Shown: positions 1-1,840, counted from the stretch's first letter. The stretch: DNA of 1,840 nucleotides from Escherichia coli (GCF_003334255.1 NZ_QOWU01000146.1); one strand, 5' to 3'. The notes: generated by a model not told the origin, from the letters alone. Made by a program: numbers and translations.

Positions 1-2
1 TG

Positions 3-190
3 CGGATCAACGCCACCTGTCCAGGCTCCGTGCGTGAAGCCCCCACCACCTCCGGCGTGGATAATGCAACCGGCCCCCAACTGGCAGACACCGTTACACG
101 GGATTATTTCACCCTCAGAGAGCGGCTGATGACGATGCACAAGCAACTGGAAGGGGCACAGGACTATATCCGCACTCAGTGCCTGAAATA
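3..190 (+). CDS. 3' end of an unidentified protein-coding gene (last 62 codons; the rest lies upstream of the window)
   Basis: Frame 3 is open from the window edge to TAA at 188-190. Codon third positions are strongly G/C-biased, as in native enterobacterial genes. Translated tail: ...RINATCPGSVREAPTTSGVDNATGPQLADTVTRDYFTLRERLMTMHKQLEGAQDYIRTQCLK. The minus-strand frame sharing the same codon boundaries is also open (to 216-218) but has no ATG, so it is treated as an antisense shadow. No family recognised. Confidence 0.5.
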
Positions 191-299
191 AGTTTTGTTG
201 ATGCGCCGTATCGTCGCTATATTCCCTCATTAACAGAGACCGCAGCCCGACAGGGAGACTCCTCTGCGCGAGTGTGCGGGGATAATTAAAAACGATGCA

Positions 300-345
300 C
301 ACCGGGTTTTTTACCGCGTTAATGATTCGCGGGTTTATCCCGGTG
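300..345. promoter_or_regulatory. Nested inverted repeat in the intergenic region (outer 7-bp arms CACCGGG / CCCGGTG, inner 5-bp arms CCGCG / CGCGG)
   Basis: Outer arms at 300-306 and 339-345 are exact reverse complements. Inner arms at 314-318 and 328-332 pair around a 9-nt loop. T-runs at 307-312 and 334-336. Could be a weak terminator for the upstream gene, an RNA structure or a protein-binding site. Confidence 0.3.
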
Positions 346-432
346 CGATGGTGGAAGAAACAGGAAGCTGTATTACAGAAAGTGCTACTACTGTATCCCG
401 ATGCGATGTATGTAATGTGAGTCAGATAATGG

Positions 433-475
433 CACAGGATGTGGTGATGTGGCAGTCTGGAACACAGGATATATT
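433..475 (+). promoter_or_regulatory. Short direct repeats and a -10-like hexamer upstream of the lipoprotein gene
   Basis: CACAGGAT at 433-440 and 463-470 (30 bp apart). GATGTGG at 438-444 and 446-452 (tandem). TATATT at 470-475 is a 5/6 match to TATAAT and sits about 28 bp upstream of the ATG at 503. No convincing -35 hexamer, so the promoter call is weak. Confidence 0.2.
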
Positions 476-502
476 GTCAGAATAAGACCCGTAGGAATAA
501 AA

Positions 503-829
503 ATGAAAAGACGCCTTTTACTACTTTTTCTGTTATCTGTCCTGGCAGTGGGATGCTCGCAGCAAAAAGCTGATGAGCCCCGGCAATTAGTGACGGTGTA
601 TCCACGATATCCGGAATATGCTGCAGCAAATTATATCAAGGGGCTGGTTGAGGTTAAGTTCGATATTGGTGCTGATGGGACTGTGACACGGATCGTTTTT
701 CTCCGCTCAGAGCCTCATAATTTGTTTCGTGATGAAGTGGTGAAGGCCATGGCGAAATGGCGATTTGAAAAGAATCGCCCCTGTCAGGGAGTGAAGAGAC
801 AATTTATCTTTACGCCGTCACGTCCTTGA
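503..829 (+). CDS. Predicted lipoprotein consisting of a TonB C-terminal-like domain (108 aa)
   Basis: ATG at 503 is preceded by AGGA at 493-496 (6-nt spacer); stop TGA at 827-829. N-terminus MKRRLLLLFLLSVLAVGCSQQ has a basic n-region, a hydrophobic core and a lipobox-like AVGC, with Ser at +2. The remainder (VYPRYPEYAAANYIKGLVEVKFDIGADGTVTRIVFLRSEPHNLFRDEVVKAMAKWRFE) matches the conserved TonB C-terminal pattern (YP motif, G-x-V-x-V-K-F-D, D-G-x-V, P-x-N-x-F, E-V-x-x-A-M-x-x-W-R-[YF]-E), compared from memory with E. coli TonB. The GTG at 449 offered by the ORF track adds 18 residues with no RBS and would bury the signal peptide. Confidence 0.8.
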   Translation: MKRRLLLLFLLSVLAVGCSQQKADEPRQLVTVYPRYPEYAAANYIKGLVEVKFDIGADGTVTRIVFLRSEPHNLFRDEVVKAMAKWRFEKNRPCQGVKRQFIFTPSRP

Positions 830-920
830 TGCTTCCAGGTAGAGAGGGGCTGGACGCAGGAGAAAAATGAAAGAGCCAGCGGTTATATTTTTGTCATGGC
901 TGACGAGGAATGATGGAAGA

Positions 921-945
921 AGGCGTTGTATGCCACACAACGCCT
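921..945. terminator. Stem-loop between convergent genes, candidate bidirectional intrinsic terminator
   Basis: AGGCGTTGT (921-929) pairs with ACAACGCCT (937-945), a 9-bp perfect stem around the 7-nt loop ATGCCAC. On + it is followed by a T-rich stretch (TCACTGTTCATTTCTTCTTTTTCTC). On - it lies 7 nt past the stop at 952-954 and is followed by TTCTTCCATCATTCC. Neither U-tract is ideal. Confidence 0.45.
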
Positions 946-951
946 CACTGT

Positions 952-1131
952 TCATTTCTTCTTTTTCTCTGGTGGAACCCGATGAATAAGAGTTGCACTG
1001 GTTTCCGATGAGATGGCGATATACTCGGGCAAAGTATGCTGGCAGTTTTCCAACTGGTCAAAAATACCTGCTCTCGTCTGTTGCAATGCCTGCAGCATGC
1101 GGCGGCAATGCGCCTTGCTTTTACTAACCAT
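952..1131 (-). CDS. Small hypothetical protein, 59 aa, lysine-rich C-terminus
   Basis: Minus-strand ATG at 1129-1131 is preceded by GAGGAAGGAAAG (GAGG = forward 1140-1143, 8-nt spacer); stop is the complement of 952-954. Product: MVSKSKAHCRRMLQALQQTRAGIFDQLENCQHTLPEYIAISSETSATLIHRVPPEKKKK. No signal peptide or hydrophobic segment. The longer ORF-track version (start 1305) has no RBS and overlaps the upstream gene in another frame. Confidence 0.4.
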   Translation of the reverse strand: MVSKSKAHCRRMLQALQQTRAGIFDQLENCQHTLPEYIAISSETSATLIHRVPPEKKKK

Positions 1132-1192
1132 CTTTCCTTCCTCTATCAGTCGCTGCGTGAACTCATCATGTAATACCAGGTAAATGCGGATG

Positions 1193-1443
1193 TTATCGGT
1201 TTTGGCTACGCAGCATAGTACAAAACGGACAGGTGCATCCCGGGACGGGGGAGGCGTCACATGTCCCTGTGATGGTTGTTTCGGGTAATGCACTGTGTGG
1301 GGCATAAAAATGTCCGATAATTTTACTTTCTACCGCAGTTAGTTGATTCGTTGGTCCTGGTAGCACATTGGGCGAGGATTTAAATGCCAGGCAACTGAAG
1401 GATGATGTTGCAAGGGAGATAGCGAGAATATTTCTGATTTTCA
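1193..1443 (-). CDS. Small secreted cysteine-rich protein, 83 aa precursor
   Basis: Minus-strand ATG at 1441-1443 (GAGG about 10 nt upstream); stop is the complement of 1193-1195. N-terminus MKIRNILAISLATSSFSCLA looks like a Sec signal peptide with a likely cleavage after CLA. The mature part ends in a four-cysteine cluster, TGTCDASPVPGCTCPFCTM. Rare codons are present (AGA, CTA, TTA, GGA, CGA). The ORF-track start at 1513 adds 23 residues ahead of the signal peptide and is disfavoured. Confidence 0.55.
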
Positions 1444-1485
1444 TTTGATGATGCCTCTGTGTGAAATGACGGTAAACGACGCACT

Positions 1486-1518
1486 TGTGCCGGCACATAA
1501 TAGCAAGCACCATAATAG
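1486..1518. promoter_or_regulatory. 12-bp perfect palindrome TGTGCCGGCACA followed by direct repeats of CATAATAG
   Basis: TGTGCCGGCACA at 1486-1497 is its own reverse complement. CATAATAG occurs at 1496-1503 and 1511-1518, each preceded by GCAC. On the minus strand these read TATTAT (-10-like), 45-75 bp upstream of the ATG at 1443. Candidate operator and promoter for the secreted-protein gene. Confidence 0.3.
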
Positions 1519-1624
1519 ATCAGATTCGATTCTTGCTGTAAGTGATAATTATTCTCGTTTTCGGGTCCTTTCCGTCGATCCAACAGGTTACGGGGCGGCG
1601 ACCTCGCGGGTTTTCGCTATTTAT

Positions 1625-1745
1625 GAAAATTTTCCGGGAACCATGTCCGGTTTCTCTTCAAGTTAACTATATGAAAAATAAAAAAAGAGGTCTTCTGTGA
1701 ACCGGACATGCACAAAAAATAGACATGTAAGCCGGACATGACCGG
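1625..1745. promoter_or_regulatory. Array of an 11-bp motif AACCGGACATG (one inverted copy, two direct copies) plus overlapping short palindromes; putative operator region
   Basis: Exact 11-mer at 1700-1710. Its exact reverse complement CATGTCCGGTT at 1642-1652. A 10/11 copy AGCCGGACATG at 1730-1740, and a partial GACATG at 1722-1727. Direct copies are 30 bp apart; the inverted pair encloses a 47-bp AT-rich segment containing an A-tract (1675-1687). Palindromes GAAAATTTTC (1625-1634) and TTCCGGGAA (1632-1640) lie just upstream. The array sits 45-160 bp upstream of the GTG at 1788. Confidence 0.5.
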
Positions 1746-1787
1746 TTTTGTTGTGATTGTGAAGTGAGAGTTTTTGCGAGGTGAGGA

Positions 1788-1840
1788 GTGGCTACGCAGA
1801 CTGAAGTTGCCAGGCATTTAAGTCTGACCGATCGCCAGCT
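1788..1840 (+). CDS. 5' end of a gene for a putative helix-turn-helix DNA-binding protein (first 17 codons only)
   Basis: GTG at 1788 is preceded by GAGG at 1779-1782 (5-nt spacer) and by an in-frame TGA at 1782-1784, so no longer N-terminus is possible in this frame. The frame stays open to the window edge. N-terminus (V/M)ATQTEVARHLSLTDRQ resembles the first helix and turn of HTH regulators (for example the LacI-type pattern T-x-x-[DE]-V-A-[RK]). Far too short for a family call. Confidence 0.35.
   Translation, partial: MATQTEVARHLSLTDRQ

Follow-up and report, generated by a model that had tools for sequence, protein, structure and literature searches.

The window analysed here, a stretch of 1840 nucleotides of Escherichia coli DNA (GCF_003334255.1, NZ_QOWU01000146.1, positions 1-1840), carries the end of the overlapping lysis genes Rz and Rz1, a cassette of small genes (among them one for a TonB-like lipoprotein and ORF83, an open reading frame (ORF) for 83 amino acids), a cohesive-end (cos) packaging site, and the start of terS, the gene of the small terminase subunit. 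Over its whole length, the window matches the chromosome of E. coli G1/2 at 100% identity, within a lambdoid prophage of ~40 kb inserted beside potC. We used the annotated 41.8 kb around this match (RefSeq NZ_CP060083.1; hereafter L001), of which the window is positions 20001-21840. The integrase gene is located at L001 1814-2932, placing the window ~18 kb from the integrase end of the prophage; potC, the nearest host gene, is 18 kb from the window, and at least 20 kb of phage genes, tail genes included, lie on its right side. To the left, the prophage order is integrase, excisionase, an early region with dicB and ydfABC, cro, rusA, an antiterminator, and three tRNAs, with holin, lysozyme, and a “lysis protein” directly before the window. 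To the right, the small and large terminase genes are followed by portal, head, tail, J, and lom, which is the lambda order. Because phage genes flank it on both sides and the integrase is 18 kb away, the window lies inside acquired DNA and not at its edge. Very likely, in our view, the window is where the two arms of a lambda-like prophage meet in its interior, the right arm with its late lysis genes and the left arm with its packaging genes, and its uneven composition comes from three known parts that are unrelated to one another. The central features belong to well-described kinds, namely Rz/Rz1, a hot spot for morons (independent cargo units of phage genomes), and a lambda-type cos, and the curated annotation of phage 21 already covers most of the window. 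There is nonetheless value for annotation, as the RefSeq record (NZ_CP060083.1) lacks both Rz1 (L001 20001-20129) and cos (L001 21562-21750), which are clearly present.

The left end of the window, positions 1-191 on the plus strand, is the 3′ end of Rz, the i-spanin gene, read in frame 3 to a stop codon at 189-191 and matching phrog_13 (“Rz-like spanin”, E=1.5e-24). RefSeq names the entire gene (L001 19733-20191) “lysis protein”; its translation aligns with lambda Rz, and the DNA of its end is 86% identical to lambda and phage 21 and 91% identical to phage PhiR12_1. In the +1 frame of Rz, positions 1-129 (plus strand) encode the 3′ part of Rz1, the o-spanin lipoprotein (phrog_3198, E=2.2e-18). 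The full Rz1 ORF, rebuilt from L001 as MKLFALTLPLVVSAC joined to GSTPPVQAPCVKPPPPPAWIMQPAPNWQTPLHGIISPSESG, is very close to lambda Rz1: it carries a VVSAC lipobox and, in the mature part, a PPPPP tract, it lies wholly inside Rz, and its layout is near-identical to that of lambda. The locus thus holds an embedded two-component spanin, that is, Rz with a proline-rich Rz1 lipoprotein in its +1 frame.

This overlap is also where the G+C content (GC) of the window is highest. GC reaches 62% in the Rz/Rz1 overlap (1-129) and falls to 50% in the remaining part of Rz (130-191), and lambda follows the same trend, with GC at the three codon positions of 0.69/0.53/0.48 within the overlap and 0.44/0.26/0.47 beyond it. 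The GC-rich patch is explained by dual coding, since proline-rich Rz1, with its CCN codons, is read in the +1 frame of Rz. Being written largely in CCN codons, Rz1 would lift G+C at all three Rz codon positions in the first 93-129 bases. Hence, the G/C-rich third positions that a first-pass annotation of this DNA had attributed to the partial gene are in part the second positions of Rz1 proline codons.

At the right end of the window, the following parts of a lambda-type cos were found: the cohesive end, cosQ ~30 bp upstream, three R sites with R2 inverted, and a Nu1-family terS ~190 bp away followed by terL. We placed cosQ at 1562-1568 (plus strand) by coordinate transfer from the cosQ of phage 21 (OL657228.1 42902-42908), which is annotated 24-30 bases before the virion end; the window shares the cosQ block CGGGTCCTTTCCG unchanged with phage 21, lambda, and PhiR12_1. 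The cosN core is the 12-nt cohesive end GGGCGGCGACCT at 1593-1604 (plus strand), with nicks expected at 1592/1593 on the top strand and at 1604/1605 on the bottom strand. The right end of the phage 21 virion aligns exactly to window position 1592, bases 1-12 of phage 21 are annotated as the cohesive end, and a four-way alignment revealed that GGGCGGCGACCT and its nick context are the same in the window, lambda, phage 21, and PhiR12_1. The spacer between cosN and cosB, known as the I2 segment (1605-1641, plus strand), is conserved as well: positions 1600-1637 match lambda bases 8-45, and many other lambda-like phages too, at 100% identity. In lambda-type packaging, I2 has a role in termination (PMC4669245). 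After about position 1637, the window departs from lambda and phage 21 in this alignment.

Past this point, the repeats retain the order, orientation, and spacing of lambda cosB, with a different R sequence. The R3-equivalent, CATGTCCGGTTT, is an exact repeat copy at 1642-1653 on the plus strand (+50 to +61 from the cohesive end; R3 of phage 21 is at 50-65). It is followed at 1663-1688 (plus strand) by an I1-equivalent, TAACTATATG and then an A-tract, which we regard as a putative bend site for integration host factor (IHF) by its position and motif; its TAACT..TG motif and A-tract occupy the place that I1 has in lambda and phage 21 (I1 of phage 21 being 74-86). The R2-equivalent, an exact copy at 1699-1710 on the minus strand (+107 to +118; phage 21 R2, 107-122), is inverted, as in phage 21, where R2 is opposite to R3 and R1. 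The R1-equivalent (1729-1748; +137 to +156; phage 21 R1, 150-166) is a near-palindrome, CCGGACATGACCGG, in which overlapping copies at 1730-1740 (minus) and 1737-1747 (plus) have one mismatch each. Allowing at most two mismatches, CATGTCCGGTT gave five matches compared with 0.45 expected, a number that none of 200 shuffles reached; copies start at 1642 (plus), 1700 (minus), 1730 (minus), and 1737 (plus). Complex cosB architectures of this sort have been described in lambda, phage 21, phi80, Gifsy-1, and Monarch (PMC4669245, PMC9026076). A literature search with the literal R sequence returned only papers on p53 sites.

The first-pass annotation had described this part of the window as a control region dense in repeats and palindromes. 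The density is real in 1640-1750, where it arises from the predicted terminase-binding repeats of cosB together with the A+T-rich putative bend site, while elsewhere the repeats are short and chance-like; the region itself is a site for DNA packaging (cos) and not for transcriptional control.

The terS gene begins within the window at 1788 (1788-1840, plus strand) with a GTG start codon located +196 from the cohesive end and a GAGG 6 nt upstream, close to the ~+190 of lambda and to the 189 of phage 21. RefSeq annotates it as “terminase small subunit” (L001 21788-22297), it matches phrog_57 and phrog_1790, and terL is the next gene. The TerS protein belongs to the Nu1 family and is 32-34% identical to gp1 of phage 21 and to lambda Nu1. 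Its C-terminal two-thirds are ~46% identical to lambda. For its N-terminal DNA-binding part, close relatives were found only among the PhiR12 phages, and this part is unlike the corresponding domains of lambda, phage 21, and N15. An unlike N-terminal domain fits the different R sequence. We propose that terminase would nick cosN to produce the 12-nt cohesive end, with cosQ signaling termination, and that the small subunit would bind the three CATGTCCGGTT repeats, arranged in the order R3, bend site, inverted R2, and R1. That the repeats bind this TerS, and that IHF bends the A-tract region, are both predictions from sequence. Since the R sequence and the N-terminal DNA-binding domain of TerS both differ from those of lambda, whose 12-nt cohesive end and cosQ are identical to those of the window, the CATGTCCGGTT cosB and its TerS probably constitute a separate packaging specificity.

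We then compared the composition of the window with that of the whole prophage. GC is 58.1% in 1-191, 47.4% in 192-1189, and 44.9% in 1190-1790. The first-pass annotation had contrasted a G/C-rich 5′ partial gene with an AT-rich block beginning at about 1190 and using rare codons, and had taken such a contrast as a possible mark of the edge of horizontally acquired DNA. The first part of this description holds: 1-191 is richer in G+C than 1190-1790 (Fisher p=0.0016), and G+C at third codon positions (GC3) is 0.68 in the Rz fragment within the window, compared with 0.43-0.45 in the TonB-like ORF and ORF83. The block from 1190 is A+T-richer than 1-191, but it does not begin with a step, as 192-1189 and 1190-1790 do not differ in GC (p=0.35). 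Unsupervised change-point segmentation placed a single significant break near base 93 (66.7% in 1-93 versus 46.9% in 94-1840, permutation p=0.014), and no further break in the window, whether at 1190 or at the borders of the cassette. The local minimum of 41-43% is found at 1501-1700 and 1593-1787, coinciding with the putative bend site and A-tract of cosB. Compared with prophage stretches of equal length, the Rz fragment (191 nt) ranks at the 82nd percentile and 1190-1790 (601 nt) at the 12th.

A similar picture emerged at the level of genes. In the 43 prophage genes compared, GC3 spans 0.27-0.70 (mean 0.53, sd 0.10) and the codon adaptation index (CAI) 0.16-0.45. The respective GC3 and CAI values are 0.59 and 0.36 for Rz, 0.43 and 0.18 for the TonB-like gene, 0.46 and 0.20 for terS, and 0.42 and 0.19 for ORF83, all inside the prophage's own range; the CAI values, with weights after Sharp & Li 1987, are indicative only. 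Rare codons are somewhat enriched, as had been claimed, at 10-12% in the TonB-like ORF and ORF83 compared with a mean of 6.5% (sd 2.6) in the coding sequences of the prophage. Overall, the compositional contrast is real but modest, and it is placed elsewhere than the first-pass annotation proposed.

Could the A+T-rich part nevertheless be nothing but chance? It might be argued that, beyond the Rz/Rz1 patch, the window has no structure, and that the low GC of 1190-1790 is sampling noise in homogeneous DNA of ~47% GC. The persistence of 94-1840 as one segment, the p value of 0.35 between its two parts, and the unremarkable 12th percentile all agree with this explanation. However, the 41-43% minimum falls on the putative bend site and A-tract of cosB, a functional A+T-rich element that lambda and phage 21 possess too, and we therefore regard noise as quite unlikely to be the whole account.

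The notion that the contrast is a boundary between native chromosome, represented by the G+C-rich gene, and an acquired A+T-rich island is barely credible. It draws on the higher G+C of 1-191 relative to 1190-1790 and on the accessory, non-core nature of the region. Yet the G+C-rich gene is one of the phage's own lysis genes, and the sole change point is inside Rz rather than intergenic and coincides with no mosaic breakpoint. No core genes adjoin the break on either side, both being occupied by phage genes, and no integrase, att repeat, or tRNA marks it: the integrase is at L001 1814-2932, at the nearest prophage end (by potC), 18 kb off, and scans of the window for tRNAs and against Rfam yielded no match, nor was any att-like feature found in it. 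The phage genes on both sides in the L001 annotation refute this boundary. What we favor instead, an interior lysis-packaging junction, traces the contrast to known elements, and it illustrates that a contrast seen by eye in a short window can stem from overlapping reading frames and a protein-binding packaging site and not from an island boundary.

That the DNA was horizontally acquired, in contrast, stood up well: the window belongs to a prophage and is a mosaic of exchangeable modules, whose breakpoints we mapped by local BLAST against relatives. Phage 21 (OL657228.1) matches at 27-169 (86% identity) and at 202-1640 (98.3%; phage 21 positions 41542-42931 plus bases 1-48), the latter stretch taking in the TonB-like gene, the small ORFs, cosQ, cosN, and the I2 spacer. 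From ~1640 onward the two differ, with CATGTCGG-type cosB sites in phage 21 versus CATGTCCGGTT in the window and with TerS proteins that are 32% identical; they differ also in Rz (only 86% identical) and in that phage 21 has bor where the window has ~30 unrelated bases. PhiR12_1 matches at 1-168 (91%), 202-365 (79%), and 1528-1840 (89%), and because its two inner matches abut, it lacks exactly 366-1527. More generally, the PhiR12 group (PV340549-PV340554) shares with the window the Rz type (91%), the cosB repeats, and TerS (89-92% identity in DNA and 99.4% in protein), differing in the complete absence of this 1162-bp cassette. Lambda matches only at 27-169, 202-309, and 1537-1637. A literature search for the source paper of the PhiR12 phages returned nothing relevant.

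The same modules could be followed among 5426 complete E. coli genomes, the set to which all our genome counts refer. The Rz end is present in 1618 genomes, the cassette in 1225 (nearly all at ≥99% identity), and the cosB/terS module in 1157, including O157:H7, while at least 80% of the whole window is present in only 420; the region is thus not core genome. The modules assort separately (1618, 1225, and 1157 genomes, with all three in 420), which makes the window a mosaic in the usual phage sense. The arrangement is typical of lambdoid phages, with cargo collecting at a hot spot that separates the lysis genes from the packaging genes. The cosB/terS module is found in about 21% of complete E. 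coli genomes and, among deposited phages, only in the PhiR12 group. Such a widespread, uncharacterized cosB/TerS pair bears on packaging specificity and on the interactions between phage-inducible chromosomal islands and their helper phages.

The cassette itself (366-1527, 1162 bp) is moron-like: it is extra DNA relative to colinear relatives, being present in phage 21 and missing from PhiR12_1, whose flanks are contiguous across the gap (positions 2494 and 2493 of our PhiR12_1 locus, L003, are adjacent). Of the 1225 E. coli genomes that carry it, 1203 have it as one unit at ≥99% identity. In our proposal, it would be optional cargo with the TonB-like lipoprotein gene reading rightward, two small ORFs reading leftward, and a hairpin between them, seated in the well-known Rz-cos hot spot that in lambda holds bor. 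Its A+T content is slightly above the prophage average, and its rare codons are more frequent. The bor region of lambda occupies the same interval and likewise carries small lipoprotein-type cargo, some of it read leftward against late transcription, and a homolog of ORF83 adjoins a bor-like gene in Salmonella. The cargo of the window differs, consisting of the TonB-like lipoprotein and the 83-residue protein, without bor.

One could therefore ask whether the A+T-richer part of the window reflects a recent insertion of 366-1527 from a donor of lower G+C into a PhiR12_1-like phage, that is, an unameliorated moron, deviant GC being included in the definition of a moron (PMC3594210). We see this as a serious possibility, though an unlikely one. 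The presence or absence of the 1162 bp is a clean polymorphism, the cassette has 46.4% GC, below the 51.9% of the remaining prophage (p=2e-4), its TonB-like gene has a CAI of 0.18 and a rare-codon fraction of 10%, and the ≥99% identity of the cassette in nearly all its carriers suggests recent spread. The GC of the cassette also differs from that of the left 1 kb (51.7%, p=0.014). However, it resembles that of the right 1 kb (45.7%, p=0.76), and mean GC over the whole early and lysis half is 48%, so the cassette is no local outlier; its borders coincide with no GC change point, and it is the Rz/Rz1 overlap, rather than the cassette, that gives the GC-rich signal. Moreover, with only two states, insertion and deletion cannot be told apart.

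The junction of lysis and packaging modules, with exchangeable cargo between them, thus remains our preferred interpretation, and several points weigh against parts of it. A scan of cosB for the IHF consensus WATCAANNNNTTR, allowing one mismatch, gave no match. The inducibility of this prophage and the cutting of this cos are predictions only. As the cassette is like its right flank in GC, with a change point at neither border, it is “A+T-richer” only relative to the prophage average. We presume that the genes of the cassette have promoters of their own, and promoter-like sites are no commoner than in shuffles (3 found versus 2.5 expected). Finally, the codon adaptation comparison is, as stated above, indicative only.

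Between Rz and the cassette, two further segments were distinguished. Positions 170-201, ~30 bases just past the conserved part of Rz, have no match in lambda, phage 21, or PhiR12_1; the same junction holds ~505 bp including bor in phage 21 and ~150 bp in PhiR12_1. Judging from these comparisons, we interpret 170-201 as a variable recombination joint. The following segment, 202-365, is a spacer common to several lambdoid phages, with 98% identity to phage 21, 79% to PhiR12_1, and 80% to lambda (202-309). In both phage 21 and PhiR47_2, bor lies between Rz and this shared segment, and it is missing at this place in the window.

The rightward gene of the cassette, at 503-829 (plus strand), encodes a lipoprotein of 108 amino acids with the lipobox LAVGC, annotated by RefSeq as “TonB family protein”. 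The protein scored 47.4 bits against the TIGR01352 model (tonB_Cterm; cut-off 27.1), and its residues 23-103 match the structures of the C-terminal domain (CTD) of E. coli TonB in PDB (1u07, 2grx, and 2gsk; E about 1e-14). Against the equivalog models of full-length TonB, it scored only 45-69 bits, where the cut-offs are 265-448, and the anchor and proline-rich spacer of TonB (~240 amino acids) are absent. On these matches, we classify it as a TonB-CTD protein and not as a TonB. PHROG labels it “Rz-like spanin” (phrog_1267), which, given the TonB-CTD matches, is likely a mislabel. TonB-CTD genes recur in this interval, from Rz to the terminase genes, in lambdoid phages whose packaging modules differ; in phage JLK-2012, a homolog with 74% identity has Rz on one side and an unrelated terminase module (HNH and a different terS) on the other.

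As for the function of this lipoprotein, periplasmic fragments of TonB have a dominant-negative effect. By analogy, the 108-residue protein, predicted to be targeted to the outer membrane, might act as a decoy at the TonB boxes of receptors, shielding the lysogen from TonB-dependent phages and colicins, a tentative suggestion that we think rather unlikely to hold. In the literature searched, we found no description of superinfection exclusion by a TonB-CTD decoy. If true, it would bear on lysogenic conversion.

Downstream of this gene, the annotation of 830-1560 varies among records in strand and in the choice of ORF; the calls of small ORFs in 830-1190 do not agree, and the conserved 83-residue gene is absent from the RefSeq record, which is a further point of value for annotation. 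An inverted repeat with a 12-bp stem (I10 in our list) forms a hairpin at 918-948, between the convergent gene sets. It starts 4 nt past the stop codon of the leftward 59-residue ORF, its predicted free energy is -16.4 kcal/mol on either strand, and its U-tract is weak; by this location and fold, it is possibly a bidirectional terminator. Two of the five “terminator-like” matches in the window are cosB repeats beside T runs.

The 59-residue hypothetical ORF (952-1131, minus strand; WP_000253883.1 in RefSeq; phrog_4843, E=3e-46) is weakly supported as a gene. It is overlapped on the plus strand by an ORF for 45 amino acids (1036-1173, phrog_3744), which is the one called in phage 21 and ev017. 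Conservation cannot settle the choice of ORF in 952-1173, because the sequences are ≥99% uniform.

ORF83 (1193-1444, minus strand) is unannotated in RefSeq and has a GAGG 9 nt upstream of its ATG. It encodes a Cys-rich protein of 83 amino acids and of secreted or lipoprotein type, for which we recovered 22 homologs, mostly of 83-84 amino acids and with 55-72% identity, in Salmonella, Klebsiella, and Citrobacter. Residues C18, C70, C72, and C75 are invariant, as is the C-terminal motif PVPGCxCPFCTMLRS, its MLR included, and the leader with the invariant Cys18 fits either a lipobox (SSFSC) or a signal peptidase I site. Searches against PHROG, NCBIfam, Pfam, and PDB gave no match, and the AlphaFold2 model has a predicted local distance difference test score (pLDDT) of 49.8, which is not usable. 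ORF83 is a real, as yet unnamed gene, and its product may represent an unnamed family of island or prophage cargo. We also considered a 20-nt inverted repeat (1377-1396/1805-1824, 18 of 20 positions matched) as a long-range link between the leader region of ORF83 and the start of terS, and rejected it as probably due to chance: among 100 sequences simulated with a Markov-1 model, 3 reached a score of 18/20, and phage 21 and PhiR12_1 have the arms apart from each other. Diverged copies of ORF83 occur beside a cobW/Fur pair and an integrase in a Klebsiella contig, and beside bor-like and omptin genes in Salmonella. In Klebsiella CP024459.1 (positions 3840-4000 of the locus we extracted, L009), a degenerate, reverse-oriented cos-like sequence containing CACCGCCCCATAAC and then CACCGGAAAG lies upstream of the ORF83 homolog, which suggests that this copy was carried there with the remnant of a lambdoid right end.

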